The notes under the pieces were generated by a model. The model saw only the letters and a list, made by a program, of their open reading frames with translations. It was not told the origin of the DNA and made no database searches. Below are positions 11,044-51,601 of a DNA stretch of 64,000 nt, one piece after another. Source of the DNA: an uncultured Acidobacteriota bacterium (GTDB lineage: Bacteria; Acidobacteriota; UBA6911; RPQK01); the NCBI GenBank assembly GCA_963744645.1, contig CAVUUN010000014.1, forward strand, positions 450,110-514,109. Direction: 5' to 3'. Both the position numbers and the translations under genes were made by a program. The stretch's first letter is position 1; each line of letters starts with the position of its first letter.

Positions 11044-11045
11044 GA

Positions 11046-20666: not shown

Positions 20667-22143
20667 TTTGCAGGGGTTTGCCGGTTCTCTCGCTCAGCCG
20701 GGCGTAGTCTTCTTCAGCCACGAGCAGGTAAACGGGTCGAGGAGAACGGAGCTGCTTGACCGCCTCCTCCATTTCGTAGATCTCGAGAACCGGGCGGTTA
20801 AGGTAGTAGGCCAGGCTGGGCGCCGTGTACCGGAAGTAGCCCGCCTCGTACTCCCGGCCGATCCTTCGCTCGCACGCATCTCTCTCAATGCTCTCCGCCA
20901 AAGGGGCAACCGGCTTGTATTGTTCGAATTTCGGCAGGTAAACCCAGAGCCCGGCCGTGTAAAAACCGACCAGGAAGACAGCAGCCGGCAACACCTGGCG
21001 CATCGAAAGCAGCAAACCCGACGTTGCACAAAGAAGCGGGGGAAGTATCGCCAGTGCGGAGCTCCCGAAGATCTGGCGGGAGAAGAGAAAAAGCACGACC
21101 GCGGCTGCGAGGAGCAGAACACCTGATAGGGCGGCAGCCAGTCTGCCCGGTTTCTGCTCGCTCCAGTGGATCCCGAGCAGAAGAGCGGCCGCGGGATAAG
21201 CAGGCAGGATGTAGTATTCCTGCTTGTTCACCGAAAAAGAAAAGAAGATCACGTACCCGATCAGCCAGATCCACGACGGGGCGATCGCGAACCGCGCGGC
21301 TGTGGCAGGCCACGACCGGTTCCGGCTAAGCCACCAGGGGAGGGAAGCGACCGTGAACAAGGACCACGGCAGAAAATCACCGGCGAAGATTCCCAGGTAG
21401 TACAGCGGCCCTCTCGACGGTCCGTACGTCATGTAGCCGTAGCGGCCGAGGTTCTCGCGCAGAAAGAAGTCCAGGACCGGCTGCGGTCCCATCCAGATGG
21501 CGAGAGCCACGAACCAGGAAGAAGCGACGACCGCAAAACAAAGAATTCCCGGCAACCAGGGGGCGGCTCCCAGCAGCACCCAACGGCGGCGTAAGATCCC
21601 CGCAGCCAGGAGCAGGAGGACGGGTAACAATGCCACCGGTCCCTTGGCCAGGAACGCGAGCCCAAGGAAGAAGCACGCCGCAATGAAGTCCATGGTCGCC
21701 TGCCTCCCAGCCAGCGGATCAGGAACCAGACCGCCGCCAGAATGCAGAAGAGCATCAGGACATCGATGAGCAACCGCTTCGCGAGGATCTGAAACCGAAA
21801 CGTCGTGGTGAAGATCGCAGCGACAAGGAAGGCATACCGGTCGGGGATCAGAAATCGGGCTATGCCGTACAAAAACAGCACGCTCCCGTATGCGAGCAGG
21901 CCGAGCAGGAGCCTTTCCCAAAGGAGGGAAACGCCGAAGAGCTTGTAAGGTACCGCAACAATCCAATAGGAGAGCGGGGGCTTGTTCAGGCGCGGTTGGC
22001 CGTTGAAGTGGGGGACCACCCAGTCGCCCCGTTCCACCATCTCGCGCGGCGTCTGGACGTAGAATGCCTCGTTTGCATCCCAGACGGAGGAGTCCCGAAG
22101 GCTCGTGAAGAACGGAACGGCCAGCAGGAGCAGCAGCAGCCAC
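20518..22143 (-). CDS. GT-C family glycosyltransferase, ArnT/PMT-like (GT39/GT83 type)
   Basis: N-terminal motif ...RGDWVVPHFNGQPRLNKPPLSYW... and a ~13-TM profile are typical of ArnT/PMT lipid-linked sugar transferases. Confidence 0.8.
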   Translation of the reverse strand: MAAAAPAGRSVLHEPSGLLRLGCKRGILRPDAARDGGTGRLGGPPLQRPTAPEQAPALLLDCCGTLQALRRFPPLGKAPARPARIRERAVFVRHSPISDPRPVCLPCRCDLHHDVSVSDPREAVAHRCPDALLHSGGGLVPDPLAGRQATMDFIAACFFLGLAFLAKGPVALLPVLLLLAAGILRRRWVLLGAAPWLPGILCFAVVASSWFVALAIWMGPQPVLDFFLRENLGRYGYMTYGPSRGPLYYLGIFAGDFLPWSLFTVASLPWWLSRNRSWPATAARFAIAPSWIWLIGYVIFFSFSVNKQEYYILPAYPAAALLLGIHWSEQKPGRLAAALSGVLLLAAAVVLFLFSRQIFGSSALAILPPLLCATSGLLLSMRQVLPAAVFLVGFYTAGLWVYLPKFEQYKPVAPLAESIERDACERRIGREYEAGYFRYTAPSLAYYLNRPVLEIYEMEEAVKQLRSPRPVYLLVAEEDYARLSERTGKPLQIVDRRPKLYTTARIFLEGFKRGGNRNKRYPWIRSIYLITNQPTNKRDRT

Positions 22144-22177
22144 CTCGTTCTAGGTTTAAGGCTCCCCTCGGTTTGTC

Positions 22178-24698: not shown

Positions 24699-24780
24699 TT
24701 TCGGGGACATAATACTTAATTCCCTCCCCGTTACTGAGCGGTCTCCGTTGGCAAAGGAATTAAGTTTTGTGTCCCCGAAA
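24699..24780. repeat. MITE-like element copy 3, in the mutS upstream region
   Basis: Termini identical to the copies at 30-110 and 37858-37939. Confidence 0.8.
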
Positions 24781-24955: not shown

Positions 24956-25190
24956 TGTCAGAGCCGCGCGAGCGCTTTCCAGCGAAGCAAGCGGTTTCGA
25001 GTCCGGTCAGAGCCGCGCGCGAGCGCTCTTCCAGCGAAGCAAGCGGGTTCGAACAGAAAGCTGAACGCGCGAAAAATCGGACGAAGAAGCGTACCGGCGA
25101 TTAATGGAAGGTTGAGCTCGGGGCAGGCGATCTGCTTTCTGTACCGACCCGCTTGCTTCGCTGGAAAGCGCTCGCGCGCGGCTCTGACAG
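24956..25190. repeat. complex repeat: 36-bp unit (CAGAGCCGCGCGAGCGCTTTCCAGCGAAGCAAGCGG) twice direct and once inverted
   Basis: Copies at 24956-24994, 25009-25047 and inverted at 25148-25190, read directly. Track ORFs here are spurious. Confidence 0.75.
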
Positions 25191-25219: not shown

Positions 25220-26530
25220 TCACTTCAAATCGGGAGTGGGAGACCGTCCCAGCGGCAGGCTGGCCGAGACGACGCCCCGGATGGTGCGGACGATGGTCCC
25301 CACCAGCGTCTGGTCGCTGACAATTTCCACGGTCCCTTCGGCGCTTTTACCCGAGAACTCTGACACGAGCTCGTCGATAAAAGAGGCCCTCTGCTCCCCC
25401 GGGGCCAGGACCACCTCCACCGTATGCTTCTTGAACAGGGGGAGGTAGAACGTGATGGAGACTTTCGCCTCATGATCAGAGACATTGGCCAGCGCCAGCG
25501 CGGTGTTGGTCTCCTCGGCCAGGTTTTTTTGAAAGATTCCGAAGAAGCGGTAGCCGGGTATCGCGCCCTGGATGCCCGTCTCCGAGACCGGTTTGCCCTC
25601 GGAGTCAAGGATGCGGTAGACGGCGGCGAGCTCCACCGGATAGTTCGAGGCGACACAGGCGTAGCCGCGGTCCAATTCAGAGACCGAGCCCGTGGTGCGG
25701 ACAATCTTCGACTGGACGTCTTCAAGCACGGAGTCGAAATGAGCGCCCTGTTGTCCGTCGAGGATGACGGGCAAGGGCGCGCCGGACGGGTCCCGAAACT
25801 CGAGCGAGAGCATGGCCACAGCATGGAGCGGCCACGAGTATCGGTTGGGTATGGCCGAACTGGTCATGCTCAGTTGGGTCTGAAGTGTCCTTTCTCCTTC
25901 GGCAAGCCGGCCGTGCGCGGCTTGGGCCACACATCGGCGAAAAGCAGGTGGATTAGTGAAACTGGCGTGGATCAGGAAGAGTGCCTCCGGCTCGTGAGCG
26001 TCTGAATACTCCACCTCAACACGGCTGATTGCGCGGCCTTCAAGGTCTTGCAGCAGAACCGGATTGAGTAGCGTATACCCCGGCAACAGACTAGTCGCCT
26101 CCTCTCCCAGCAGAACTCCATCCGAATTGAACAATCTTTCGGTAGCGGTGACTGCTGTGCTTGCAGCCAAGTGGAGTGAAAGTTGCCGGACGGGCTGGCT
26201 GAAATGAATGACGAGCGGTCCCGCGTCTTCCCCGTCCGGCGCGTCATTGAGAATGGCTGGAGCGTCTGTTTGGGGGCCCTCAGGCCAAACAAACACACTT
26301 CGGCTCCCGCTGATCGGTGTTTGCTCGGAGCGGTTGTCCAGCGTAATGCCCCAGTCGCCGAAGACCTGGCTGACATCTGAACCGGCAGGAAGCGGCGGGG
26401 GTACGAGCATCACCGCCTGCTCTGCAGACGGGTCGTGTTGTGAGAAGACTGCGGAGGCCGCAATTGTACCCGCTGCGGCCAGCAGGAAGCAGATCACAAA
26501 CCTCATCGCGGGTGTTGTCACTTTGCGCAT
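25220..26530 (-). CDS. hypothetical exported protein (signal peptide), no recognisable domain
   Basis: 436-aa ORF with an N-terminal hydrophobic signal (MRFVICFLLAAAGTIAASA). No family recognised by eye. Confidence 0.5.
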   Translation of the reverse strand: MRKVTTPAMRFVICFLLAAAGTIAASAVFSQHDPSAEQAVMLVPPPLPAGSDVSQVFGDWGITLDNRSEQTPISGSRSVFVWPEGPQTDAPAILNDAPDGEDAGPLVIHFSQPVRQLSLHLAASTAVTATERLFNSDGVLLGEEATSLLPGYTLLNPVLLQDLEGRAISRVEVEYSDAHEPEALFLIHASFTNPPAFRRCVAQAAHGRLAEGERTLQTQLSMTSSAIPNRYSWPLHAVAMLSLEFRDPSGAPLPVILDGQQGAHFDSVLEDVQSKIVRTTGSVSELDRGYACVASNYPVELAAVYRILDSEGKPVSETGIQGAIPGYRFFGIFQKNLAEETNTALALANVSDHEAKVSITFYLPLFKKHTVEVVLAPGEQRASFIDELVSEFSGKSAEGTVEIVSDQTLVGTIVRTIRGVVSASLPLGRSPTPDLK

Positions 26531-26960: not shown

Positions 26961-27218
26961 ATGCCAAAATCAGAGAAGGTCGTTCGTCAGAGCGTATCCC
27001 TGCCACCCCGCATCGCGAGAGACGTGCGCACCATTGCGCGAACTCGGAATACGAGCGCCAACCGAGTTCTGGTGGAGTTGATCGAAACGGGGCTTCAATG
27101 CAGGGAGGCCGAAAAACAGCGCTTCTTTGGTCTTGCCGATCGACTCGGGCAGACAACCGATCCAAACGAGCGGCAGCGCATTAAAGAAGAACTCGCGCGC
27201 ATGACCTTCGGTGACTGA
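26961..27218 (+). CDS. ribbon-helix-helix (CopG/Arc-like) DNA-binding protein
   Basis: RHH pattern VSLPPRIARDVRTIARTRNTSANRVLVELIETGL. Sits downstream of an AT-rich patch (26700-26960). Confidence 0.55.
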   Translation: MPKSEKVVRQSVSLPPRIARDVRTIARTRNTSANRVLVELIETGLQCREAEKQRFFGLADRLGQTTDPNERQRIKEELARMTFGD

Positions 27219-27370
27219 TGCCCAAGATCCAATGGATCGGTCTTCCCCCTGCTCTTCGCCAGCACCTCTTCGACCGACTGGAGGAACGGCAGATATCGAT
27301 CGAGGACCTGTACAAGCTGAAAGTCTGGAGGGAATCGGAACCTGAGGCACCGGATGGGCCCTTGGTATAA
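27218..27370 (+). CDS. 50-aa ORF translationally coupled (ATGA overlap) to the RHH gene
   Basis: MPKIQWIGLPPALRQHLFDRLEERQISIEDLYKLKVWRESEPEAPDGPLV. Missing from the ORF track because it is under 60 aa. Translated by hand. Confidence 0.3.
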   Translation: MPKIQWIGLPPALRQHLFDRLEERQISIEDLYKLKVWRESEPEAPDGPLV

Positions 27371-27620: not shown

Positions 27621-28928
27621 ATGTGCGGCGGAAAACCTGGAATGAGCATTTTCGCCACGCTGACCGCCCTTGGTGGAGCCACGCTTTGCTACGGACGGTT
27701 TTTAAGATCGCAGTTCTGGACCGACCAGGCCCGGGCCAGTTACGTCGAGCGGATGCTTGATCGAACGCTGCGCGATGCTGCCCGCATCCCTTTCTACCGG
27801 GACCGCCTCCGCAGCTGCCAGCCCGGGAATCTCCACGAAGCGCCGATCCTGGCTCGCAGCGACTTGCCGCTCCTTAACAACGAGGTGCGTCGGATGCACC
27901 CTGGCAGACGCCTCCAGGCCGCTCGATCATCCGGTTCGACCGGCATGCCGGTTGAAGTCCTTTTCGACACCCCGCACCAGGTTCACCGTTTTGCCGCCCG
28001 CGCGAGGTACCTTCGCGCGAATGGCTGGAGCCCGCTGAAGAAAAGTGCCTGGATCATCTCCCTGCCCGGGGCGACCCCCGACGGTCAGCTGGTCCGGGCG
28101 TTTCGATCCGTCGGCGTCGGCTTTCTCTCTGTCTTCACGCCGCTTGAAGAGCAACTCGCGTGGCTGCGTCGTTTTCGGCCCGAATACCTCTATACGTACC
28201 CATCTAACCTCGGCGGCCTGCTCGACCTTCTGGAGGAAGAGGGTGGGGAAGCACTCGGTCTGAAAGGATTGTTCTCCGGCGGCGAAATCCTGGACGATGC
28301 AACCCGGAAGCGCGCCCGGGAGATCCTCGGTATCCCGGTCGCCGACAACTACGGGACAACCGAGGTTTTCATCGCGTGGCAGTGCCCTGCCGGCGGCTAC
28401 CATATCAACAGCGAACATGTTCATGTGGAGGTCGTCGATCAGACGGGTCAGCCGGCCCGGGTCGGCGAGGTCGGGCGGGTCCTGGTGACTACCCTCAACA
28501 ACCGGCTGATGCCCCTGGTCCGTTACGAAATCGGGGACTATGCGCAGGTAACGGCTGAACGCTGCCCCTGCGGCCGCACCTTGCCCCTGCTGGGACGTGT
28601 TGTCGGCCGCAGCATAAACCTGTTTCGGTTGCCCTCGGGGCGCGTCATCACTCCCTGGGAACTGGTCGTCCGAATCAAATTCATGCCGGAGTTGAAGCAG
28701 TTTCAGGTTGTCCAGAAAGCCCTTGACCGATGCCTGCTTCGTTATGTATCAAACACCGGTCTGCTGAGTGCGCACAATCGATCGAGCATTGAGCGTGGCT
28801 TCGCGGATGTGCTGGGCCCCGAAGTACGGGTCGATTTCGAACGAGTTGAAAGGATCGAGAGAGCAGCGTCGGGGAAGTTCATGACGGCGTTCTCGGAAGT
28901 GAGCCGCGAGCCGTCCGAAACGCGGTGA
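27621..28928 (+). CDS. PaaK/CapK/F390-synthetase-family adenylate-forming enzyme (copy 1)
   Basis: SSGSTG adenylation motif and PaaK-like length and fold. The ATG at 27642 (MSIFATL) is an alternative start. Confidence 0.75.
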   Translation: MCGGKPGMSIFATLTALGGATLCYGRFLRSQFWTDQARASYVERMLDRTLRDAARIPFYRDRLRSCQPGNLHEAPILARSDLPLLNNEVRRMHPGRRLQAARSSGSTGMPVEVLFDTPHQVHRFAARARYLRANGWSPLKKSAWIISLPGATPDGQLVRAFRSVGVGFLSVFTPLEEQLAWLRRFRPEYLYTYPSNLGGLLDLLEEEGGEALGLKGLFSGGEILDDATRKRAREILGIPVADNYGTTEVFIAWQCPAGGYHINSEHVHVEVVDQTGQPARVGEVGRVLVTTLNNRLMPLVRYEIGDYAQVTAERCPCGRTLPLLGRVVGRSINLFRLPSGRVITPWELVVRIKFMPELKQFQVVQKALDRCLLRYVSNTGLLSAHNRSSIERGFADVLGPEVRVDFERVERIERAASGKFMTAFSEVSREPSETR

Positions 28929-30340
28929 CGGTCCCCGCCTGCGCTGGTCTCGAATTTGGGTCCGTTATGAGTGAACCGATTATTGAGAAAGCCAAGCCAG
29001 GGGATCTCGAGGCCATCCTTGAAGTGATGAAACCCTGGAACATGCATCATGTTCCCTCTCCCGAGATGGAGGAACTGGATCTCGAATGCTTTTATGTAGC
29101 CAGGATCGAAGGGCGAATCGTGGGCGCTTCCGGCTACAAGGTGCTCTCCCAGACGCGAGGGAAGACAACCCTACTGGGTGTCCTGCCCGAGCACTGCAAG
29201 GGCGGGCTCGGACGCCTGCTCCAGGATGTCCGCCTGGAGGCAATGCACCGAATCGGAGTCAAGAAGGTCATCACCAACGCCGATCGCGCGGAGACGATCG
29301 AATGGTACAAAAGGCGGTATGGTTACCGAGAGGTTGGCACGCTTCGCAAAGTGAGCTCCTTCGGTGACCCAGCCGCCGATCATTGGACGACGCTCGAACT
29401 GGACCTCGAGGCGTACTTCCGGAATATAGATCGCCGGCAAAGCGCAACCGAGTACGTCGCCCGCAACGAGCCGCATCCCCTCGCCCCTTACCCGCCGCTC
29501 GTGATCAATGTCTGTCTGACCGGCATGGTGCCGGAGAAAGCCACTGCGCCTTTTGTGCCGCTCCAGGTAGAAGAGATCGTGGGGGACGCGGTTCGAGTCT
29601 TTGATGCGGGCGCGAGAGTTGTCCACGTTCATGCCCGTGACGAGGCGGGCGCCCCCACCTGGGATGCGCGAATCTACGAACGAATTCTGACCGGCATCCG
29701 GCGGGAGCGGCCGGAGCTCGTCTGCTGCGTCTCGACCTCCGGGCGTTTGTGGTCGGATTTCGAGCGAAGGTCGGAAGTCCTGGATCTCACCGGCGCTGCC
29801 AAGCCCGACTTTGCCAGCCTGACACTCGGTTCCTTGAACTTCATGACCGGCCCAAGCGTGAGCTCCCCGGAAATGATTGAGCGGCTGGCCGAGAGGATGA
29901 AGGAAAGGCAGATCCTGCCGGAGTTGGAGGTGTTCGACCTGGGCATGATCGGAATAGCGAAATACCTGGAAAGGAAAGGTCTCATCGGCGGCCGGAAGTC
30001 TTTTAACCTGTTGCTCGGCAGTCTTGGAAGCGTTCCTGCCACGATTGGAAATCTGGCCGCCCTGGTTGCGGCGCTTCCGGATGACTCCTTCTGGTCGGCC
30101 GCGGGTATCGGCGTCTTTCAGCTGCCCATGAATGTCGCCGGCCTCATTGCAGGTGGTGGCGTGAGGATCGGGATCGAAGACGCACTCCACTACGATTACG
30201 CTCGGAAAAAGCCCGCCTCCAACCTCGACCTGGTGTGTCGAATGGTGCGTATCGCCTCCGAAGTTCAGCGGTCGATTGCGACACCTGAAGAGGCCCGAAG
30301 TCTTCTCGGCCTGGGCCGGCAACCGACGGTCGGAAGGTGA
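28925..30340 (+). CDS. fusion protein: N-terminal GNAT acetyltransferase domain plus C-terminal BKACE/DUF849 (3-keto-5-aminohexanoate-cleavage-enzyme-like) domain
   Basis: Residues ~15-165 read as GNAT (...RIVGASGYKV...GLGRLLQ...). Residues ~185-471 match the TIM-barrel BKACE family (PLVINVCLTGMVPEK...VHVHARD...LPELEVFDLGMIG...IGIEDALHYDYARK). The start overlaps the upstream stop. Confidence 0.6.
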   Translation: MTVPACAGLEFGSVMSEPIIEKAKPGDLEAILEVMKPWNMHHVPSPEMEELDLECFYVARIEGRIVGASGYKVLSQTRGKTTLLGVLPEHCKGGLGRLLQDVRLEAMHRIGVKKVITNADRAETIEWYKRRYGYREVGTLRKVSSFGDPAADHWTTLELDLEAYFRNIDRRQSATEYVARNEPHPLAPYPPLVINVCLTGMVPEKATAPFVPLQVEEIVGDAVRVFDAGARVVHVHARDEAGAPTWDARIYERILTGIRRERPELVCCVSTSGRLWSDFERRSEVLDLTGAAKPDFASLTLGSLNFMTGPSVSSPEMIERLAERMKERQILPELEVFDLGMIGIAKYLERKGLIGGRKSFNLLLGSLGSVPATIGNLAALVAALPDDSFWSAAGIGVFQLPMNVAGLIAGGGVRIGIEDALHYDYARKKPASNLDLVCRMVRIASEVQRSIATPEEARSLLGLGRQPTVGR

Positions 30341-30341
30341 G

Positions 30342-31652
30342 ATGCAACCGCTGACTATCCTCGGCGGCGGTCCGGCGGGACTGGCTGTCGCTTACTATGC
30401 ACACCAGGCAGGAATCCCGTTCGTTCTCTACGAACGGTCAGAAAGCGTCGGGGGGCTCTGCCGCACCTTTCGCCTGGGGGAGCACGGATACGACTCCGGC
30501 GCCCACCGCTTTCACGATATCTATCCCGCGATCACCCGAGACGTGCGTCGCCTGCTGGAGCTGCATCCTGTCACTGCTCCCAGTCGCATCTGCAGCAGCG
30601 GGCAGTTTCTCCAGTTCCCGCCGACGCCGCTCAATCTTCTGTTCTCTTCCTCCCCTGCAGAGTGGGCTCGGATCGGCATAGGTCTTTGGCGCGGCCGGAG
30701 GCGGCAAGGGGGCGGGTCCAGCTTCCAGGATTTCGCCGTGTCCCGCTTCGGAGAGAGACTGGCGCGCCGATTCCTCCTGGATTATTCCGCCAAAGTCTGG
30801 GGTTTGCCTGCCGACCAGTTGTCCGTCGATGTTGCAACGCGCCGGCTGAACGGCCTGAATCTGCGAACCCTGGTTTCCGAACTTATTGCCCCGCGAAAGA
30901 GAGCGGGGAACTTGGACGGCCATTTTCTCTATCCGAAGAACGGGTTCGGAGAAATCGCGACGACCCTGGCCGCTGCTCTGCCGCCGGACAGTGTCAAAAC
31001 CGGTCAGGAAGTCACCCGAATCGAGTGCCAGGATGCGGCTGTCCGGCGAATTCATTTTGCCTCCGTTCCGCCGGCCGACGTCCCCGGCCGCATGGTCTCC
31101 ACGCTCCCGCTGAACCTGCTCATTGAGTTCCTTGGGGACGCTGTCTCCGAGACCGTCAGGGAGGCGGCCCGCGCCCTCCGGTTCCGGCACGTGCGGCTGA
31201 TTTTCCTGAGGCTGGGGAAGCCGAGGGTGTCGAACAATGCCTCGATCTACTTCCCGGATCCGAAGATGTGCGTTTCCCGGGTGTGCGAGCCGAAGAATCG
31301 ATCGGCGGCGCTCGCGCCGGCGCAGGAAACGTCGCTTGCGGTGGAAGTGCCCTGTTGCGAAGGAGAGGAATTGTACGTGCTGCCGAACGAAGAGCTGAAG
31401 GAACGGGTCGTATCCGAGGTGAGCGTCACCGGACTAATTCGCCCCTCGGAGGTTCTCGACTGGGCGCACCATTTTCTGGAGAATGCCTATCCGATCTACT
31501 CTCTGCACTACAGGCAACACCAAAAGGTGGTATTGGATGGCCTGGCCTGCCTGACCAATCTCACGACACTCGGCCGGAACGGCAAGTTTTTCTACAGCCA
31601 CTTCCACGATCAGCTGAACATGGGCAAGGAATTCGTGTCCGGATTGAGGTGA
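30342..31652 (+). CDS. FAD-dependent oxidoreductase, UDP-galactopyranose-mutase / amine-oxidase-like
   Basis: GGGPAGLAVAY dinucleotide-binding motif followed by GGLCRT...GAHRFH (compare UGM GPHIFH). An AGGTGA ribosome-binding site 6 nt upstream of the ATG at 30342. Confidence 0.7.
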   Translation: MQPLTILGGGPAGLAVAYYAHQAGIPFVLYERSESVGGLCRTFRLGEHGYDSGAHRFHDIYPAITRDVRRLLELHPVTAPSRICSSGQFLQFPPTPLNLLFSSSPAEWARIGIGLWRGRRRQGGGSSFQDFAVSRFGERLARRFLLDYSAKVWGLPADQLSVDVATRRLNGLNLRTLVSELIAPRKRAGNLDGHFLYPKNGFGEIATTLAAALPPDSVKTGQEVTRIECQDAAVRRIHFASVPPADVPGRMVSTLPLNLLIEFLGDAVSETVREAARALRFRHVRLIFLRLGKPRVSNNASIYFPDPKMCVSRVCEPKNRSAALAPAQETSLAVEVPCCEGEELYVLPNEELKERVVSEVSVTGLIRPSEVLDWAHHFLENAYPIYSLHYRQHQKVVLDGLACLTNLTTLGRNGKFFYSHFHDQLNMGKEFVSGLR

Positions 31653-31719
31653 GCTGGGGCGGCGAGGGTGTCGAAAAGCCTGGCGGCGAAGCTCGCTGAA
31701 CAAACAGCAAGGCGGGCGC

Positions 31720-31770
31720 GTGAGCGAGCTCGAAGGGCAGGGAAGGTTTGAGTCCCGCCTTAGGCGGCGA
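31720..31770. repeat. family-D repeat solo copy
   Basis: GTGAGCGAGCTCGAAGGGCAGGGAAGGTTTGAGTCCCGCCTTAGGCGGCG is ~85% identical to 17057-17107. Confidence 0.65.
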
Positions 31771-31805
31771 ACCGGAAGCGACATCGTTTGGCCTGTCCAC
31801 CTCGC

Positions 31806-33272
31806 CTACCGCCTTCGGACAAAGCTGGGAAACTTGCCGGACTCGGCCGCGGGGATCGCTTCCACGATCTCCACTTCCACCCGGGTCCCCGGTCCCAATA
31901 CTCTGCCGGTAGCCTCGACAAAAGCCCTGGAAAGCTCGGATGGAGAGGCCCCGGCCGCCGGGACGATCTTCCAGAGCAGCAACCCGGGAGGTGTATAGAC
32001 GATCTGAGCCCGGACGGTGAGCCCGATTTGCGCCGCCAGCTGGTGACGAAGCGTCAGCGCGGAAATCACCGTCCCGTCCGCGCGCGGGATGATCTGGCTG
32101 ACCCGTCCCTGCAATTCCCGGAGGACCGGCAGGGAACGGCCGCATCCGCACGGTTCGGTCGCAATGACACCCAAGTCCCCGAGCCGGTAGTTGAGCAATA
32201 CCATCGCCCGGTTGTGGAGATTGGACACGACCAGCTCTCCGACTTCTCCCGGTTTCACGGCCCTTTGGAGCGCGGACGTCTCGTCCGCCCGGTCGGACGA
32301 CGCTTCGGGAGCCCATCCTGCCCGCCCGCCCGCGAACTCCAGCGACTCGTCTCGGGTCGGATTGCGACTCTGCCGCAGTGCGGCGCCTATGCCCGGGTCG
32401 ATCAGACGAACGGCACACAGGTCTACGTTCAGATGAAATCCGCGGCGCCGTTCGCATTGAAACCCCAGTCGACCGGTTTCGGTGGTTTGATACGTCGAGT
32501 AGACAGTGCACCCTTGTTCCTCCATCGTCCGGCGCACCTCGGCCGAGAGAACATCGCCTCCATAGACCCAGACCCGCGGCAGGAAGATTCTCTTGCCGCT
32601 GTCGGAAATTGTCCTGAAGAGAACCTCTGCGAAGGAACCGTAGGAGAACACAATCTCCGGACGAACCTCGTTGATGCGCTGTGCGATTTCGTCGATCGGG
32701 GTATCGGGCGGCAGCTCAATCCGGTGAATGGCCCGCTGGGGCGCGAACATATGCGCTTCTACAAACCGTCTCACGCGCCCGGCGCCGTAGCCCATGATGT
32801 GGAGCTGCCTTTGCCCCCAGTTTTTGCCCGCGATCGTGGCCAGAATCACCCGGTCGCGCTCGGCGTGGGCAACCTTCGCGAGCACCGCCGAGTGATCCCA
32901 GTAGACCCGCAGTGCGAAACCCTGGGACGAACCGGATGTCTTGAGGCAGAGACGCCTGCTGTCCGGGTACAGGGAAGAACAGAACGTTTCTGGATCCTGC
33001 GCCACGTCGGACAGATCGATCAGTGGCAGCTTGGCGAGGTCGTCCGCTGTCCTGAAGTCCGAAGGTCGCAGTCCCCTCTCAGCCATTGCATTCCGATAGA
33101 ACGGGACCGTCTCCCAAGCGTGGCGGATGATTCTCCGCAACCGCCATCGCTGCAGGCGCTCGATCGTTTCCGGCTTTAGAAAGGGAACGCGCCGCTCGAC
33201 CAATGCGTAGGCGCCTACCCAGGCGGTGTTGCCGGCGCGCACCAGCGCAGAGACGGGGCCAGACTCGGACAT
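31806..33272 (-). CDS. PaaK/CapK/F390-synthetase-family adenylate-forming enzyme (copy 2)
   Basis: TSGSSQG adenylation motif and PaaK-like architecture. A divergent paralogue of 27621-28928. Confidence 0.75.
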   Translation of the reverse strand: MSESGPVSALVRAGNTAWVGAYALVERRVPFLKPETIERLQRWRLRRIIRHAWETVPFYRNAMAERGLRPSDFRTADDLAKLPLIDLSDVAQDPETFCSSLYPDSRRLCLKTSGSSQGFALRVYWDHSAVLAKVAHAERDRVILATIAGKNWGQRQLHIMGYGAGRVRRFVEAHMFAPQRAIHRIELPPDTPIDEIAQRINEVRPEIVFSYGSFAEVLFRTISDSGKRIFLPRVWVYGGDVLSAEVRRTMEEQGCTVYSTYQTTETGRLGFQCERRRGFHLNVDLCAVRLIDPGIGAALRQSRNPTRDESLEFAGGRAGWAPEASSDRADETSALQRAVKPGEVGELVVSNLHNRAMVLLNYRLGDLGVIATEPCGCGRSLPVLRELQGRVSQIIPRADGTVISALTLRHQLAAQIGLTVRAQIVYTPPGLLLWKIVPAAGASPSELSRAFVEATGRVLGPGTRVEVEIVEAIPAAESGKFPSFVRRR

Positions 33273-33380
33273 TCGTGTTCGCTCCCGACCTAATTCTGGG
33301 TCTTCAGCCCTCGGTCATCAATCCGAAAATCGGGAACACGGCCCAGCGGGGCGGCGGAGCAGTGCTAAACTGTCGTCGCT

Positions 33381-34663
33381 TTGAAGCTCACACTGGATCC
33401 GGCAACTTCGCGCGCTTGCGCCCCAGCCACCAAAGGACTGGTTGCAATCGCCGGGGTTTATTTCATTTCCCTCTTCCTGCAGCTGCCGATATCGGACGCC
33501 CTGCTGTCCGGGATCCCGCATTGGAGGATCGGCAAGGGTGCGGTTGCCCCACCCATGGTACTCTCCGGCGATTCCCCCCATTACCTGGTCCTTGTCAACA
33601 GCATCATCGAGGATGGGGATCTTGATCTGGCCAACAATTACAGCCAGGCCGCGGCTGGCGGCTGGCAAGCAGGGGCGCGTTTCCGGGGAGTGGCCCTGGA
33701 CCACCATACCGAGGTCGATAGCGAGGGAAGGGAACGGTCCCTGCATTCGATTTTCCTTCCATTGCTCCTGTCGCTCATCGCCTGGCCATTTTCCGGCACT
33801 CGATGGGTTGAGCCCGTCTGTATCTGCCTGACGATGGGGGCGACCGTCCTCGCTCTCTGGTTGTTCGCGAGAAGAAGCGGGAAGGCTTTTGGCTGGGTGG
33901 TCGTACTTGCCGTCGCGACGCCTCTCTGGTGTTACTCCAGGGACATCTGGACCGAGCCATGGCTGACCGCCGCCTGGATTGGTCTTCTTTTCGTGCAGAG
34001 TCTTCCGGTCCTCTTCGCCGTGGCACTTGCAGGGACACTGATCAAGTACAACTTCGTCCTGGTCCCGCTCAGCATGGCAGTCGTTTTCTGGCTGAGACGC
34101 GACCGGCGCCGGGCTTCGTGCTTGCCGGAGCGGGTATCCTCGGAGTATTGATCGCCGTGGCCGCGGTTCAGTACTTGTTCCGCGACGTGGACCATTTCAA
34201 CCTCTTTCACCTCGGCGGTCATTACCACGGCGCCGACGCCACGCTGCGTCAGAGAATCGTGCCCTTGAAATTTCTTCAACCGACGGGGCTGGTTGGCATG
34301 CTTTTTGACCCGCAAGCAGGTCTCCTGCCGTTCTTCCCGTTTCTGGCCTGGGGCCTCTGGCAAATCCGAAAGGGCGGCTATCTGTTCGTTCCCGTCATTG
34401 TCTTCTTCCTTGTTCTTGGCGCCTACCCGGGATGGACTGGAGGAGCCGGATTTTCGTCGCGGTACCTGGTGCCGGTCCTTCCGGCCCTGGTCATCGCCGT
34501 CGCTGATGCAAAACCCCGCAGCTACTTCTTCGGGCTGGCATTGCTTTACGGTGCATTCTGGGGTGCGCTCGCCGGCATAGGGCCGGCGTATGTCTACGAA
34601 CGCACGCCTGTCCAGATCACTGCCGCTATCCTCAGGCGGCTGTCTGCGCTGGCTGGTATCTGA
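33381..34663 (+). pseudogene. polytopic membrane protein (possible GT-C-fold glycosyltransferase or glycan polymerase-like), interrupted by a frameshift or split into two genes
   Basis: The TM-rich ORF 33381-34151 ends in RRDRRRAS... The TM-rich sequence resumes in another frame (ORF 33929-34663, ...PAPGFVLAGAGILGVLIAVA...). The switch lies at ~34090-34115. Confidence 0.45.
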
Positions 34664-34707
34664 CGGGGCTGTTACTGAGGACGCCTGTCGGCTGGAGGCT
34701 GATTGTT

Positions 34708-36558
34708 GTGTGTGGAATCGCAGGAATTGTTCATTGTCACCTGCCTCCTGATCAGTTGAGGGCCGCGCTTGTCCGCATGGAGCAGTCACTTATCCACCGG
34801 GGGCCCGACGAAGGCAACGTCGTGGTATTCCCCGATGGCTCGGGCGGATTTGCTGCCCGTCGCCTCAGTCTCCTCGACCTGCGGAATGGAAGCCAACCGA
34901 TACCCAACGAGGACGGCACGGTCCACGTCCTGCACAACGGCGAGATTTACAATCACCGGGGTCTCAGGGAGGAGCTCCAGGCGCGAGGCCATTGCCTCCG
35001 GAGCCGGACCGACAGCGAGGTTATCGCGCATCTCTACGAAGACGACGGTGTTGAGTGCCTCCATCGCCTGCATGGGATGTTCGCGCTGGCCTTGTACGAT
35101 GCTCGAAAGCGGCAGCTTCTACTCGCCAGGGACGGGCCCGGCATGAAGCCGCTGTACTTTGCCAACACCCGAGCAGGATTTCTCTTCGCCTCGGAGGCCA
35201 GGGCCCTGTTTGCCTCTGGCCTGATCCGTCCTGAACCGGAGCTCCCTGCCATAGACACCTACCTTGCTATCGGTTACGTGCCCGCCCCGGCGTGCGCTTT
35301 TCGAAATGTCGGGAAGCTTAGGGCCGGCCATTACCTGCTGGTAGAAAAGGAAAAAATGCGGGACGCGGCCTTCTCGCGCTACGAGTATCGCCAGCCGAGT
35401 CCTGCGAAGAGCGACGCGGAGTACGGGGCCGAGCTGGAGGCGCTTCTTTCCGGCGCGGTTCGCTCTCATCTTGCGGCCGATGTCCCCGTGGGGGCCCTGT
35501 TAAGCGGAGGTTGGGACTCGTCTCTGATAGCGACCCTGGCAGCCCGGAGCATGGGAGCACCTCTGAAGACTTTCTCCATTGTCTTTCCTGAGGACCCTGA
35601 GGCGGACGAAAGCCGCTTCTCGCGCGCGATGGCGGAATCGCTCGGCAGCGATCACCACGAGATCGAGTACCGAAATTCCCTGCTGCCGGCACTTATCCCG
35701 AAAATGTCCCGTGACCTGGAGGAACCGTGTGCAAATGTTCCAACGGGGGTCGTTTCTCTGCTTGCTTCCCTGGCCGGCGCCCACGTGAAGTCCGTAGTCA
35801 GCGGCGAAGGAGCCGATGAATTGTTTGGCGGCTACAAATTCTTTCGCATTCGTTCCCCGTACCTCGCTCGAGCCGTTCTCCCCAGGTCTCTCGCCCGTTT
35901 CGCGGCGACCTGGCTCCCGCATCCGCTCGTCCGGTGCGCCTTGAGAGTCGCGGCGGCCCCGGACGAAAGGACTGGAGATCCGGAGTGGTTTCGAATGTTC
36001 TCTCCCGAGGAGAAACGGATGGTCCTGAAACCGGAGTTTCAGGTGGACGGACCGGATGTCTCCCCCACGCTGGTCGAACGCGAAACCCTCGTAACCTGCG
36101 TCGACAGGCTCCAGCGCCGCCTGGCCTTCGATCTTACCGGTCGTTTGGCCGACGGCATTCTCTTCATGGCCGACAAGGTCGCGATGTCGCACTCTCTCGA
36201 AGTGCGGATGCCTTTCCTGGACCGTTCTGTCGTGGAATTTGCCATGCGGCTCCCGTCCCATCTGAAGGTGAACGGGAGGCAAGGGAAGGTCATCCTGAGA
36301 CCACTCGCGAGCCGGCTCCTGCCGCCCGCTATCGCCTCGCGGCGCAAGAAAGGACTCGCCTATCCGGACCGAGCCTGGTCCAAGCCACCGCTTGACCGCT
36401 ACGCCCGCGACCTGCTCCTCGGAGGCGGCCGTAACGGCCCATTCAATACCCGGTACCTGGAACAGAACCTTCCGCGCTGGCAGCGGGCCGCTTGGAAGGG
36501 AGAACGACGAATCGCCGGGCTGGTTTTCCTCCAGAGCTGGTGGAACGAGTTCTGCTGA
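34708..36558 (+). CDS. asparagine synthetase-family glutamine amidotransferase (AsnB/WbpS/beta-lactam-synthetase-like)
   Basis: MCGIAG N-terminal nucleophile, SGGWDSS PP-loop, 616 aa. Confidence 0.85.
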   Translation: MCGIAGIVHCHLPPDQLRAALVRMEQSLIHRGPDEGNVVVFPDGSGGFAARRLSLLDLRNGSQPIPNEDGTVHVLHNGEIYNHRGLREELQARGHCLRSRTDSEVIAHLYEDDGVECLHRLHGMFALALYDARKRQLLLARDGPGMKPLYFANTRAGFLFASEARALFASGLIRPEPELPAIDTYLAIGYVPAPACAFRNVGKLRAGHYLLVEKEKMRDAAFSRYEYRQPSPAKSDAEYGAELEALLSGAVRSHLAADVPVGALLSGGWDSSLIATLAARSMGAPLKTFSIVFPEDPEADESRFSRAMAESLGSDHHEIEYRNSLLPALIPKMSRDLEEPCANVPTGVVSLLASLAGAHVKSVVSGEGADELFGGYKFFRIRSPYLARAVLPRSLARFAATWLPHPLVRCALRVAAAPDERTGDPEWFRMFSPEEKRMVLKPEFQVDGPDVSPTLVERETLVTCVDRLQRRLAFDLTGRLADGILFMADKVAMSHSLEVRMPFLDRSVVEFAMRLPSHLKVNGRQGKVILRPLASRLLPPAIASRRKKGLAYPDRAWSKPPLDRYARDLLLGGGRNGPFNTRYLEQNLPRWQRAAWKGERRIAGLVFLQSWWNEFC

Positions 36559-36565
36559 CTCACCC

Positions 36566-36665
36566 TTAGTCTCCCCGTTTTGGTCTCCCCGTCTCCTAGT
36601 CTCGTCTCCTTGTCTCCTGTCTCTGTCTCCCCCTCCTCCTTCTCCCCGTCTCCCCGTCTCTCCCT
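36566..36665. repeat. pyrimidine-rich heptamer array (GTCTCCY-type), inverse of 24784-24811
   Basis: tagtctccccgttttggtctccccgtctcctagtctcgtctccttgtctcctgtctctgtctccccctcctccttctccccgtctccccgtctc read directly. Confidence 0.75.
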
Positions 36666-36709
36666 TCGTATGTTATTGTCTTCATTCAGCGGAAGGAGTA
36701 CTGGCGCCC

Positions 36710-37402
36710 ATGTACATTCTGGCAATTGACACGGCGACGAATGCCGGCGGGGTTGCGCTCGGTCGTAACAATGAGCTCGTCGCCCTCTGGATGTCCAAAT
36801 CGCCTCTCCGCTATTCCGAAAGTCTCATCTCCTGGGTCGATTTTGTTCTGGCGCAGGAACGGCTCCAGCTTTCCGACATCGGTTGTTTTGCGGTCACGGT
36901 CGGACCCGGGTCTTTTACGGGGCTGCGGATCGGACTGGCGGCCGTCAAGGCTTTCAGCCAGGTTCTCGGTCGCCCGGTCTTTGGCGTTTCGACACTGCAC
37001 GCCCTGGCGCACCGTTTCCGCCATTCCGGGCAGCACATCGTGCCTCTGATCGACGCCCGCCGCCAGCAGGTTTACGCGGCCGTGTACCGCGCCGACGAAA
37101 CCGGTTGTTCGCTTGTCGGCGAGGAGGCGGTTGCCCGGCCGGATCAGTGGCTGGACACGCTTCCGCGCGACCGCCAATATGTGTTCGTAGGTGATGGTGC
37201 CGTCTTGTATAAGTCGACGATCTCGGCTCTCCTCCCTGGCCATCGTCTCCTCGAGTCCGACAATTCAGTTCTTCGGGAATTGGTTGATCTGGCTCAACTC
37301 TGGTCGGCAGCCGGCAATCAGGGGCAGGGATTCAACCTGAAGGGAAACTACCTGCGGCCGCCCGACGCCAAGCTGCCACATCCGCGCGGGGACCATGAGT
37401 AA
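36710..37402 (+). CDS. tsaB: tRNA threonylcarbamoyladenosine biosynthesis protein TsaB (YeaZ)
   Basis: MYILAIDTATNAGGVAL N-terminus and ~230 aa. A GGAAGGAG ribosome-binding site upstream. Followed by rimI, as is usual. Confidence 0.85.
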   Translation: MYILAIDTATNAGGVALGRNNELVALWMSKSPLRYSESLISWVDFVLAQERLQLSDIGCFAVTVGPGSFTGLRIGLAAVKAFSQVLGRPVFGVSTLHALAHRFRHSGQHIVPLIDARRQQVYAAVYRADETGCSLVGEEAVARPDQWLDTLPRDRQYVFVGDGAVLYKSTISALLPGHRLLESDNSVLRELVDLAQLWSAAGNQGQGFNLKGNYLRPPDAKLPHPRGDHE

Positions 37403-37871
37403 CCGGCTGCCACCCGGGGATCTGGTCATACGCGCGGCACGGTCGACGGACATCCACGCGATCTGCGAGCTTGACCGCATCACTCTCCTGAGCAAGTGGA
37501 GCCCCGAGATGTACAGGACCCTGATGACCGATGGCCGGTCCGAGCTCCGGGTGGCGTCCATGGGGGAGCGTCTGATCGGATTTCACGCTGTCACCAAGGT
37601 TCACCCGGACATTGAATTGCTCAAGATCGGCGTCACACCTGAATTCCAGGGAACGGGCGTCGGAATGGCGCTGCTGGACGATGTGCTCGGGCAAGCACGA
37701 TCCCATGGTTTCTCGAGTTGTTTTCTTGAGGTGAGAGCGAGCAACAACCGGGCCATTCGCTTCTACCGCAAAAGGGGCTTTGAAGTGGTCGGGGTGCGTC
37801 GGGCCTATTACCGGGAACCGATCGAGGACGCGCTCGTCATGCGCAAGGACATCGGCGTTTCGGGGACATAA
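37395..37871 (+). CDS. rimI: ribosomal-protein-alanine N-acetyltransferase (GNAT)
   Basis: GNAT motif (IGV...QGTGVGMALL) in the tsaB-rimI arrangement. The last 5 codons and the TAA lie inside the MITE terminal inverted repeat. Confidence 0.75.
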   Translation: MSNRLPPGDLVIRAARSTDIHAICELDRITLLSKWSPEMYRTLMTDGRSELRVASMGERLIGFHAVTKVHPDIELLKIGVTPEFQGTGVGMALLDDVLGQARSHGFSSCFLEVRASNNRAIRFYRKRGFEVVGVRRAYYREPIEDALVMRKDIGVSGT

Positions 37872-37939
37872 TACTTAATTCCCTCCCCGCGACCGAGCTG
37901 TGGCCGTTGGCCAAGGAATTAAGTTTTGTGTCCCCGAAA
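37858..37939. repeat. MITE-like element copy 4, overlapping the rimI stop codon
   Basis: Termini identical to the other copies. A partial right-half duplicate lies at 37992-38031. Confidence 0.8.
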
Positions 37940-38161
37940 CTCATTCCACTGGATGCTTAGATCTCTCGTCCCAGCAGCGCATCCAACCAACCGTTGGCCA
38001 AGGAATTAAGTTTTGTGTCCCCGAAACTCCTCCACGCGCGGGCGGCACTCCTTGCTGGATACCCCCGCCCATCCCTCCCCGGCAACCGCCGCCGTTTCTT
38101 TTGACCTATAATGTTCGATGCCTTCAACCGGTAGAGTAGACTCAAGGGACGGCCGCCGGTC

Positions 38162-46593: not shown

Positions 46594-48119
<1,526 letters not shown>

Positions 48120-48345
48120 CGGGAAACCGAAAGAAAACAACGTTCGATAACAATCGGGTCTTGCAGGCTCGCCTCTGTCTGGTTATCCAAGGTCGGATAA
48201 AAAACACCCGGCGCCTTTTTTTTCGAAGAAGAAGGGCGCCGGGTTCGATCTTGACTGGTCTTTGACAATCTGGAAGAGAGAAAACAAAAGGGCAAGAGAA
48301 ATGCCACAAGGCAGGCCTGGGGATTTTGGGCGACTGAAAAACCCG

Positions 48346-51308
<2,963 letters not shown>

Positions 51309-51385
51309 GGATTTTTCAGTGGCTCAAAAACCAAGGCCACCTGTGGCACGCCTTTAGCCCCGAGTTTCTTCTTCCAGATGTTACG

Positions 51386-51464
51386 ATTGCGGATTGCGGA
51401 TTTGGGAGTGCGGATTAAAAAGCCGGTCTTTCAATCCGCAATCCCAAATCCGCAATCCGCAATC
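51386..51464. repeat. inverted repeat of GCGGATT heptamers in the 23S-5S spacer
   Basis: gattgcggattgcggatttgggagtgcggatt ... aatccgcaatcccaaatccgcaatccgcaatc, ~31-bp arms. Confidence 0.8.
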
Positions 51465-51473
51465 TTAAAGGAT

Positions 51474-51590
51474 TTCCGGCGGTCCTGGCGGAGGGGCCAC
51501 ACCCGTTCCCTTTCCGAACACGGAAGTTAAGCCCTCCAGCGCCGATGATACTGCATGGGAAGCCATGTGGGAACGTAGGTCACCGCCGGA
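51474..51590 (+). rRNA. rrf: 5S ribosomal RNA
   Basis: CCGGCGGTCCTGGCGGAGGGGCCACACCCGTTCCC...GGGAACGTAGGTCACCGCCGG is a typical 5S sequence. Confidence 0.9.
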
Positions 51591-51601
51591 ATATAAACGA
51601 A

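Follow-up and report, generated by a model that had tools for sequence, protein, structure and literature searches.

A conserved acidobacterial operon around a GNAT-BKACE fusion protein and a CapK-like ligase: a possible envelope-glycan tailoring locus

What could a bacterium be making with two adenylating ligases, a GNAT-BKACE fusion protein, a flavoprotein resembling UDP-galactopyranose mutase (UGM), a polytopic membrane protein of the GT-C fold and an AsnB-type amidotransferase, all encoded side by side? This question is raised by a locus at positions 27621-36558 of a 64-kb stretch of DNA from an uncultured Acidobacteriota bacterium (assembly GCA_963744645.1, contig CAVUUN010000014.1); the whole stretch is referred to here as the window. 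Every part of the locus belongs to a known enzyme superfamily, and, as a preliminary description of this DNA had stated, the ensemble matches no textbook pathway: no curated pathway fits it, and every subfamily-level NCBIfam model was missed. Underlying it is a widespread two-part module, a PaaK/CapK-type ligase combined with a GNAT protein (here fused to BKACE), which this lineage has elaborated. As to its product, the reading favoured here, tentatively and with a little less than even confidence, is that the locus tailors an envelope glycan (lipopolysaccharide, exopolysaccharide (EPS) or glycoprotein) by adding amide or acyl decorations.

The six open reading frames (ORFs) were all found where the preliminary description had placed them, and the families that it had proposed for the encoded proteins were recovered by Pfam and NCBIfam scans. 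The genes, with the source of each assignment, are the following.

27621-28928, plus strand: g1 (CapK1), an AMP-binding protein of the PaaK/F390-like kind, 435 aa (Pfam and NCBIfam)
28967-30340, plus strand: g2, the GNAT-BKACE fusion, 457 aa (Pfam)
30342-31652, plus strand: g3, the UGM-like flavoprotein, 436 aa (Amino_oxidase and NAD_binding_8, faint GLF; fold)
31806-33272, minus strand: g4 (PaaK2), a second PaaK/CapK-type protein, 488 aa (NCBIfam)
33381-34663, plus strand: g5, a polytopic membrane protein of the GT-C fold, about 425 aa (predicted fold)
34708-36558, plus strand: g6, a class-II glutamine amidotransferase of the AsnB family, 616 aa (TIGR01536)

Instead of the two diverging transcription units that had been proposed, three are found. 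The first is g1-g2-g3 on the plus strand, with intergenic gaps of 38 nt and 1 nt, the latter separating the g2 stop from the g3 start. The second is g4, alone on the minus strand, convergent to g3 and divergent from g5. The third is g5-g6, both genes being on the plus strand with a spacing of 44 nt.

Comparison with related Acidobacteriota indicates which of these genes belong together. In two further contigs (L088 and L169), where the fusion protein is 79% identical to that of the window, the CapK1, fusion, flavoprotein and GT-C genes form a plus-strand operon with small or zero gaps and 61-79% identity, without PaaK2 and AsnB. In L001, the fusion is again 79% identical, and the order is CapK1, fusion, PaaK2 (minus strand) and GT-C, without the flavoprotein and AsnB; the divergent PaaK2/GT-C pair is retained there. 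The short contig L087 carries CapK1, a 94% identical fusion and the flavoprotein. The operon is partly present in these last two contigs, and identities across the four relatives range from 61 to 95%. The six genes had been described as one cassette, which does not hold as a co-conserved unit, PaaK2 being found in one relative and AsnB in none. Because the relatives keep only the core, the claim shrinks to a conserved operon of three or four genes with two local accessories. The genes g1, g2 and g5, usually together with g3, thus make up the conserved core, with PaaK2 and AsnB as accessories.

Within this core, the g2 protein consists of a GNAT domain (approximately 29033-29326) and a BKACE TIM barrel (approximately 29495-30313). 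The Pfam BKACE profile (PF05853) is matched over its full length, 1-274, with 261.3 bits against a cut-off of 24.8 (E 1.3e-77), and the Acetyltransf_1 profile with E 3.6e-6. The BKACE domain is closest to Kce (PDB 2y7d, E 1e-45), but at 238.7 bits it fails the cut-off of 382 for the Kce equivalog NF052387. In the alignment of g2 with 2y7d, the H-x-H motif, an E-D pair, an Arg and the PExE glutamate are retained (VHVHARD/IHLHIRE, PELEV/PEVEV and VRIGIED/IRCGFED), and the TGAE glutamate of Kce is lost, TGMV being present instead. These positions, which include the catalytic and Zn-binding residues of Kce, are invariant across the 12 fusions aligned. The C-terminal domain of g2 is thus a bona fide BKACE, with its predicted Zn ligands and catalytic Glu intact. 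Lysine fermentation, the role of Kce proper, was ruled out by the missed NF052387 cut-off and by the missing partner genes, no kam or kdd gene being found in any locus examined.

The fusion had been regarded as unusual. It is widespread instead, with more than 1,500 significant homologs, the best 120 of which are 59-94% identical, and it occurs in Acidobacteriota, Planctomycetota, Desulfobacterota, Sumerlaeota, Bacteroidota, Chlorobiota, Pseudomonadota and other phyla. These homologs are named solely "GNAT family N-acetyltransferase" or "Kce". The GNAT domain finds only weak matches of the YpeA type in the PDB (E 1e-3), which are uninformative about its substrate. No paper in the literature set searched pairs BKACE with GNAT, and the NetSyn paper on BKACE does not mention the fusion.

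The genomic company of the GNAT domain is more telling. An earlier scan of genome contigs with a full-length fusion profile had returned mostly stand-alone BKACEs, because the patterns of that profile came from the BKACE domain. Metagenomes were scanned with a profile of the GNAT domain only, and genome loci were added, which gave 97 loci from more than 10 phyla. The ORFs of these loci were clustered, cluster representatives were scanned, and the 76 loci with at least 1.2 kb of flank were considered informative. Many loci encode a stand-alone GNAT protein without BKACE, 59-67% identical to the fused GNAT domain. An ATP-dependent amide-forming or adenylating enzyme is encoded within 3 kb of the GNAT gene in 33 of the 76 informative loci. 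The enzymes found at this distance include CapK/PaaK-like ligases (15 loci), a cyanophycin-synthetase-like ATP-grasp protein of 661 aa (8 loci), a RimK-like ATP-grasp protein of 331 aa (6 loci), AsnB-like proteins (5 loci) and Mur-ligase-like proteins (3 loci). Additional neighbours are a LysA-like decarboxylase dependent on pyridoxal phosphate (PLP; 6 loci) and the UGM-like flavoprotein (4 loci). Since the ligases are interchangeable, non-homologous enzymes that join carboxylates to amines, the strongest general clue to function is that the substrate or product of this GNAT clade would take part in amide-bond formation.

Some of these neighbours recall named pathways. The 661-aa ATP-grasp protein also resembles the ATP-grasp part of NAGGN synthetase (TIGR03103, E 9e-40; 136.8 bits vs 569), and the second-best match of the LysA-like decarboxylases is the exosortase-A-associated family TIGR03099 (141-166 bits vs 478). 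Moreover, two loci (L003 and L120) carry flavoprotein, decarboxylase, CapK and GNAT genes with no glycan genes visible, and in L003 an acyl-CoA dehydrogenase gene lies downstream of the fusion.

Several arrangements within the clade are recorded here as separate observations. At 7861-13047 of locus L049, from a Planctomycetales metagenome-assembled genome, the CapK-like/GNAT-BKACE pair is duplicated in tandem, each fusion being accompanied by a divergent CapK-like gene; the fusion ORFs look split, possibly by frameshifts. Four metagenomic loci (L140, L141, L142 and L153) share a recurrent trio of a stand-alone GNAT protein, 54-65% identical to the GNAT domain of g2, a LysA-like PLP decarboxylase and a divergent AsnB-like protein that fits the AsnB models over approximately 200 residues only. 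Four others (L138, L139, L151 and L165) carry a CapK-like gene and a GNAT gene, and then a convergent Mur-ligase-like gene. ORF cluster 12 (338 aa, downstream of stand-alone GNATs) was discarded as spurious, as it represents an Arg-rich out-of-frame ORF with no family match.

Two proteins of the locus point to sugar chemistry, and the first of them is the flavoprotein g3. Its Pfam matches are Amino_oxidase and NAD_binding_8, with GLF only faint, and it stays below the sequence models of UGM (TIGR00031, 18.7 bits vs 303.75; PF03275, 18.7 vs 26.3). Compared with the PDB, the profile of the g3 family finds eukaryote-type UGMs over most of its length (E 2e-18) and PPO (E 1e-13); amine oxidases align in the FAD-binding N-terminus only. 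A Foldseek search with the AlphaFold2 model of g3 (pLDDT 93.9) retrieved the UGMs of Aspergillus fumigatus and Trypanosoma cruzi (TM-score 0.84-0.87, E 1e-30), with PPO next (0.81). Residues H55, R168/169, Y303, R313, Y383, R412 and Y418 of g3 align to H63, R182, Y317, R327, Y419, R447 and Y453 of the A. fumigatus enzyme (AfUGM). This set is invariant or nearly so in 54 family members, and H55, R313, Y383, R412 and Y418 are invariant throughout the family. The AfUGM residues H63, R182, Y317 and R327 were probed by structure mutants, and Y419, R447 and Y453 are active-site residues as well; AfUGM W315 is not conserved in the g3 family. The fold of the model and the active-site residues bear out the earlier naming of g3 as UGM-like, and its activity is a prediction. 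Because PPO is only slightly more distant, the evidence is one of likeness and not proof of activity.

The flavoprotein family is PRK07208-like, has 724 representatives at E<=1e-30 and is annotated only as hypothetical protein. Two of its members (P0356 and P0433) are natural fusions, one with an N-terminal NDP-sugar epimerase/dehydratase (792 aa) and one with a C-terminal LPG_synthase_TM domain (837 aa). Such fusions appear to be Rosetta-stone links of the PRK07208 family to sugar and lipid-linked-sugar metabolism.

The second protein is the membrane protein g5. Loss of one base from a CCGGGCC run at 34113/34114 splits its gene in the window into two frames (33381-34151 and 33929-34663). The contig's public record (ENA ERZ25039545 contig_27112, 754 kb; locus L170) has the gene as a single intact frame. 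Window and public record are 96.8-99.6% identical, with dozens of 1-bp indels and 7-21 gap openings per block, and the MutS gene, which encodes 831 aa in the public record, is likewise broken in the window (near 23300). Because g5 is intact in the public record, 1-bp indels are many and MutS is also split, the frameshift is most likely an assembly error, and g5 is treated as intact in the organism; a pseudogene was considered and dropped for the same reasons. In other words, the window sequence probably represents a less polished long-read assembly. The gene is also intact in L001, L088 and L169.

The preliminary description had called g5 a GT-C-like membrane protein, and structure prediction agrees with this. 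The AlphaFold2 model of its ortholog P0121 (pLDDT 89) retrieved ArnT, PglB and AftA with Foldseek. The g5 family has just 56 detectable homologs, none with a Pfam domain, and one of 38 family members matches GT87. The motifs SGDSPHY and EDGDxD are near-invariant in the first loop of the family; D63, D77 and D79, likewise near-invariant, fall in the stretch 30-123 that connects helices 1 and 2 in the model. By its modelled fold, g5 is a GT-C glycosyltransferase of a small family that Pfam does not cover. A homolog with 45% identity sits between genes for a Wzx-like flippase and Wzy_C. A Sumerlaeota contig carries a PMT_2 gene and, downstream of it, a GT-C-like gene (LA_3751/3752 family, E 1e-10) that overlaps with the beginning of the fusion gene; the GT-C-like product resembles g5 only across a 79-residue C-terminal motif.

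Other genes of this fold occur in the surroundings. On the minus strand at 19584-22149 of the window, a GT2 glycosyltransferase gene (19584-20666) adjoins a PMT_2-type GT-C ORF (20602-22149, 516 aa). This pair is ArnC/ArnT-like and lies upstream of the cassette, at a distance of 5.5 kb and on the far side of MutS. L001 and L084 also carry PMT_2 genes close to the fusion gene.

The two adenylating enzymes, g1 and g4, share 26% identity. The g1 protein is recognised by Pfam AMP-binding (E 1.5e-10; 40.9 bits vs a cut-off of 29.9); g4 reaches just 17.1 bits with this profile and matches the DVU_1553-family model of NCBIfam (E 2e-31), a family for which a literature search found no papers. For g1, the DVU_1553-family, PaaK and F390 models all remain under their cut-offs, as do the DVU_1553-family and PaaK models for g4; for instance, the PaaK equivalog TIGR02155 (cut-off 646.3) gives 53.5 bits for g1 and 63.0 bits for g4. 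In the PDB, g1 finds PaaK-like ligases (E 6e-23), and a CapK_C domain is annotated for g1 and its orthologs. Both proteins show the features of the ANL superfamily: an SSGSTG/TSGSSQG P-loop and a C-terminal SGKF lysine are readable in each, and we take these motifs to play their usual parts, the lysine being the catalytic one. By these profile scores, g1 and g4 belong to the wider PaaK/CapK/F390 branch only; for g1, the putative activity is that of an ATP-dependent amide-bond synthetase or a CoA ligase. In L001, L088 and L169, the gene immediately upstream of the fusion encodes an ortholog of g1 (66-67% identity). The g4 protein, which carries a low-complexity insert of approximately 50 aa, has an ortholog (66% identity) in the same position in L001 only, with none in L088 and L169; it is classed here as an accessory specific to this lineage.

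The second accessory, g6, scores 409.1 bits with TIGR01536 (cut-off 267.1). It has the N-terminal Cys nucleophile (MCGIAG, Cys2) and, as SGGWDSS, the SGGxDS motif, and is in all these respects a member of the asparagine synthase family. The public AsnB call (P0177, 593 aa) begins at the internal Met24 and omits the GTG-initiated MCGIAG N-terminus (34708-34776). Because this shorter call leaves out the catalytic Cys2, the longer ORF of the window is taken as the functional reading. Exact-sequence look-ups with g2 and g6 gave no match; gene starts differ in the public calls. The best PDB match of g6 is the hydroxyamidotransferase 7ylz, followed by E. coli AsnB. Its second-best NCBIfam match is TIGR03108, the XrtA/PEP-CTERM amidotransferase, which fails with 393.0 bits vs a cut-off of 816.9; TIGR03104, the NAGGN amidotransferase, fails as well (317.5 vs 570.1). 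The gene is absent beside the cassette in L001, L088 and L169, and an ortholog (60%) occurs in L171, where its neighbours are a second AsnB, an A-T-TE gene and a Mur-ligase-like gene. Only its adjacency, across the 44-nt gap, places g6 in the pathway.

How, then, might these proteins act together on an envelope glycan? The UGM-like enzyme would convert an NDP-sugar, probably by pyranose-to-furanose ring contraction. The GNAT domain would N-acylate an amino group on the sugar or on an amino-acid-derived substituent, for which the fused BKACE may supply a non-acetyl acyl-CoA made from a beta-keto acid and acetyl-CoA. CapK1 would adenylate a carboxylate, for instance that of a uronic acid, and then couple it with an amine to give an amide. 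The GT-C enzyme would move a polyprenyl-phosphate-linked sugar to its acceptor at the outer face of the inner membrane. In this genome, PaaK2 may add a second amide, and AsnB may turn a carboxylate into a carboxamide in a glutamine-dependent reaction. We infer the chemistry of all these steps from the families and folds observed.

Such a role gains support from the conserved operon, the UGM-like and GT-C folds, the ligase neighbours of the GNAT clade and published precedents. The PaaK/CapK-like protein VpsH is needed for a glycine amide on lipid-linked GulNAcA (PMC13463779). Decoration of glucuronic acid (GlcA) in the capsule of Campylobacter jejuni involves an ATP-dependent amidoligase, Cj1438C, and a PLP decarboxylase, Cj1436 (PMC11800397). 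Uronamides are the products of the AsnB-type enzyme WbpS, and Ser or Gly is placed on an amino sugar by VimA/VimE (PMC7468200). The glycan role that had been proposed from the CapK and AsnB families is thus upheld as far as the two folds and the amidation precedents go; its other part, a link to exosortase systems, is not.

Several observations nevertheless weigh against a glycan product. The cassette and its neighbours lack an initiating phosphoglycosyltransferase, Wzx/Wzy, a GT-A or GT-B glycosyltransferase and a uronic-acid dehydrogenase, and the nearest GT2/PMT_2 pair is the distant one beyond MutS. AsnB and PaaK2 are not co-conserved with the core. The flavoprotein also travels with the decarboxylase-CapK-GNAT set in the absence of a GT-C gene (L003 and L120), and PPO-type oxidases are nearly as close to the g3 model in fold as UGMs are. 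To our knowledge, no BKACE takes part in glycan synthesis. In other phyla, the GNAT clade is accompanied by cyanophycin-synthetase-like ATP-grasp or Mur-ligase-like enzymes, and elsewhere it stands alone in housekeeping surroundings where no glycan genes are visible. These glycan-free contexts fit a soluble product equally well.

A broader proposal, to which we give some credence while considering it rather doubtful, is that the CapK-like ligase and the GNAT clade, which is usually fused to BKACE, form a previously unrecognised biosynthetic module that spans phyla. In such a module, BKACE would be anabolic, producing an unusual acyl-CoA in situ which the GNAT domain would transfer to an amine. 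An interchangeable ligase may add the amide, and in Acidobacteriota the product may be delivered to the envelope by a new GT-C family together with an equally new UGM-like mutase. If true, this would be the first biosynthetic role for BKACE, extending a family known only from catabolism, and would introduce a new kind of glycan substituent. The company of amide ligases gives a testable hypothesis for many "GNAT family N-acetyltransferase" proteins that lack a curated family. Moreover, Acidobacteriota are abundant in soil and their envelope and EPS chemistry is little known, so a putative four-gene tailoring operon offers a concrete handle. Two families can now be described by fold, namely the GT-C family not covered by Pfam and the large UGM-like family of the PRK07208 type.

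The main rival to envelope-glycan tailoring, possible but on the unlikely side, is the synthesis of a small soluble amide or pseudo-peptide without a non-ribosomal peptide synthetase (NRPS), by the logic known from dapdiamide, E-64 and NAGGN. In such a scheme, the GNAT domain would cap an amine, CapK-type and other ligases would form amides, and AsnB or a decarboxylase would remove the charge of a terminal carboxylate. An osmolyte, a metallophore or a compound resembling an antibiotic would result, and the GT-C gene would be unrelated or loosely coupled. This agrees with the four unrelated classes of ATP-dependent amide ligase and the LysA-like PLP decarboxylase around the GNAT gene, with the resemblance of the 661-aa ATP-grasp protein to both cyanophycin synthetase and NAGGN synthetase, and with the loci L003 and L120, where the module is found apart from visible glycan genes. 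The fusion is, additionally, 60-70% identical between phyla, which suggests one conserved small substrate, and published NRPS-free pathways use ATP-grasp enzymes, ANL amide-bond synthetases and PLP decarboxylases (PMC12568646). In Acidobacteriota, however, the module shares an operon with a GT-C protein and a UGM-like enzyme that has the UDP-binding residues, the flavoprotein family is fused to NDP-sugar enzymes, and the exporter or regulator typical of metabolite clusters is missing. As had been noted before, no NRPS, polyketide synthase, exosortase or Wzx/Wzy gene is present among the window ORFs surveyed or the gene calls of L170. The known small-molecule models are not reached either: g1 obtains 15.5 bits with the DdaG equivalog NF041596 (cut-off 700), and NAGGN itself was ruled out by the TIGR03104 score of g6 and by a window without an ATP-grasp gene.

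That the genes share no common pathway, being neighbours by chance or recent rearrangement with only CapK1 and GNAT-BKACE functionally linked, is improbable. Such a juxtaposition would agree with the retention of PaaK2 in a single relative and of AsnB in none, the lack of the flavoprotein in L001, the different context of the AsnB ortholog, the orientation of g4 opposite to the other genes and the housekeeping surroundings. Against it stand the four-gene operon kept at 61-79% identity in two more contigs, the divergent PaaK2/GT-C pair kept in L001, the GT-C genes adjoining the fusion in a second phylum, and the recurrence of AsnB-like and flavoprotein genes beside the GNAT clade in distant lineages.

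A catabolic pathway, in which BKACE would cleave a beta-keto acid in the manner of Kce, dehydrocarnitine or 3-oxoadipate cleavage and the ligases would activate acids, is very improbable. Its attractions are the closeness of the BKACE domain to Kce with catalytic residues kept, the classical role of PaaK-type enzymes as CoA ligases of catabolism, and the acyl-CoA dehydrogenase gene after the fusion in L003. The domain nevertheless stays below the Kce cut-off and has its TGAE glutamate replaced, no lysine aminomutase, dehydrogenase or thiolase partners occur in any locus, a transporter and a substrate-responsive regulator are lacking, and a GNAT fusion within a GT-C/UGM-like operon makes no catabolic sense. 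A PEP-CTERM/exosortase-associated EPS locus or a fragment of one, at which the second-best matches of g6 (TIGR03108) and of the LysA-like decarboxylases elsewhere (TIGR03099) might hint, is extremely unlikely and was ruled out for the window, as both matches miss their cut-offs by far (393 vs 817 and 141-166 vs 478 bits), TIGR03104 is missed too, and a scan of ORFs of the 64-kb window, of the L170 calls and of the relatives' loci, small ORFs and PEP-CTERM substrates excepted, yielded no exosortase, EpsI-type sugar transferase, Wzx/Wzy or chain-length regulator.

The surroundings of the locus are ordinary. Housekeeping genes lie on either side, as had been described, with MutS upstream and TsaB/RimI downstream, and the remainder of the 64-kb window is likewise housekeeping in nature: arginine and S-adenosylmethionine genes, MutS, TsaB/RimI, an rRNA operon and TamB. 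The GC profile is flat, with no anomaly at the cassette. The repeats that were said to flank the cassette exist locally, and no repeat pair brackets the genes. Nested palindromes, perfect or near-perfect and with arms of 22 and 40 nt, occupy 25006-25188, between MutS and a gene for a secreted protein; a cluster of 39-nt repeats (37854-38030; two direct copies and one inverted) lies downstream of RimI. An 82-nt stretch is common to approximately 24700-24780 and 37858-37939 (91% identity), and the repeats at 25.0 and 37.9 kb may form a family of elements resembling repetitive extragenic palindromes. A mobile island was ruled out, there being no bracketing repeats, integrase genes, tRNA genes or GC shift.

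Further features near the locus may be listed briefly.

25220-26530, minus strand: a protein of 436 aa encoded between MutS and the cassette, its N-terminus resembling a signal peptide; 396 aa in the public record, and no Pfam or NCBIfam match
26961-27218, plus strand: an 85-aa ORF resembling a ribbon-helix-helix antitoxin
27218-27370, plus strand: a 50-aa ORF
36584-36660: a short direct repeat of the TCTCCCCGTCTCC type in the 148-nt AsnB-TsaB gap
46595-51591, plus strand: a complete rRNA operon, with 16S at 46595-48115, 23S at 48346-51309 and 5S at 51475-51591

The two small ORFs overlap by an ATGA stop/start and occupy a 1.1-kb gap of lower GC upstream of g1; neither has a Pfam match, and the public record has an 80-aa gene call in this gap. 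The ORF 36392-37402 reads the TCTCCCCGTCTCC repeat as a Pro/Ser-rich leader, and the public TsaB call begins downstream of the repeat. ARAGORN found no tRNA in the 230-nt 16S-23S spacer nor anywhere in the 64 kb.

Compared with described systems, the locus seems, by analogy, to work like known systems of glycan amidation and acylation and is a member of none of them. In the VPS polysaccharide of Vibrio cholerae, the PaaK/CapK-type protein VpsH is required for the amide linkage of glycine to a uronic acid carboxylate in a bactoprenyl-diphosphate-linked repeat unit (PMC13463779), and its partnership with an acyltransferase, the VpsG acetyltransferase, matches the pair of adenylating enzyme and acyltransferase found here. 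The likeness of VpsH to CapK1 and PaaK2 is a shared PaaK/CapK-like classification, by description. The VPS locus, however, is a complete Wzx/Wzy locus with GT-B glycosyltransferases, which are missing here, and its acetyltransferase is a left-handed beta-helix protein and not a GNAT-BKACE fusion.

In the HS:2 capsule of C. jejuni (Cj1438C, Cj1436 and Cj1437), an ATP-dependent ligase amidates GlcA with an amine supplied by a PLP enzyme (PMC11800397). This logic of ligase and decarboxylase recurs around the GNAT clade, whereas the window itself has no decarboxylase. Synthesis of the furanose sugar GalfNAc requires a UGM homolog. This sugar is a component of the HS:2 capsule (PMC12096443). The C. 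jejuni ligase is not of the PaaK type, neither GNAT-BKACE nor GT-C is involved, and the capsule is of the ABC-transporter kind on a poly-Kdo anchor.

The Wbp/Vim systems with WbpS (Porphyromonas gingivalis; Pseudomonas aeruginosa O6; WbqG of E. coli O121) use an AsnB-type enzyme to make a uronamide, and the attachment of an amino acid to a sugar amine is the task of VimA, a protein of a GNAT-fold type (PMC7468200). At the subfamily level, g6 best matches the same TIGR03108 family, yet far below its cut-off; WbpA/B/D/E are lacking, and the GNAT protein described here is fused to BKACE and unrelated to FemAB/VimA.

NRPS-independent amide assembly, to which DdaH and NAGGN belong, is a further counterpart. 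In the pathways of dapdiamide (DdaG/DdaF), E-64 (Cp1B/Cp1D) and NAGGN (Ngg/AsnO), ANL synthetases, ATP-grasp enzymes, PLP decarboxylases, N-acetylation and AsnB-type amidation are combined to give small capped amides (PMC12568646). The equivalog scores fail for the present proteins, and the known pathways have no BKACE, UGM-like or GT-C component.

At the level of single families, the same pattern of likeness and difference is seen. The acidic first-loop motifs of the g5 family may correspond to those typical of polyprenyl-phosphate-sugar users among GT-C enzymes of the ArnT/PMT/ALG/PimE type, from which g5 differs in being short (approximately 425 aa) and devoid of a large periplasmic domain; its operon has no cognate GT2 polyprenyl-phosphate-sugar synthase, and no Pfam or NCBIfam model covers its family. 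With eukaryote-type UGM, g3 has in common the fold, the His loop and the UDP-binding Arg/Tyr set, but it is far under the UGM sequence models and has no counterpart of W315. Finally, the known Kce/BKACE (DUF849) enzymes are stand-alone and catabolic, whereas the BKACE domain of g2 reaches no equivalog cut-off, is joined to a GNAT domain and is encoded in an operon of biosynthetic appearance.

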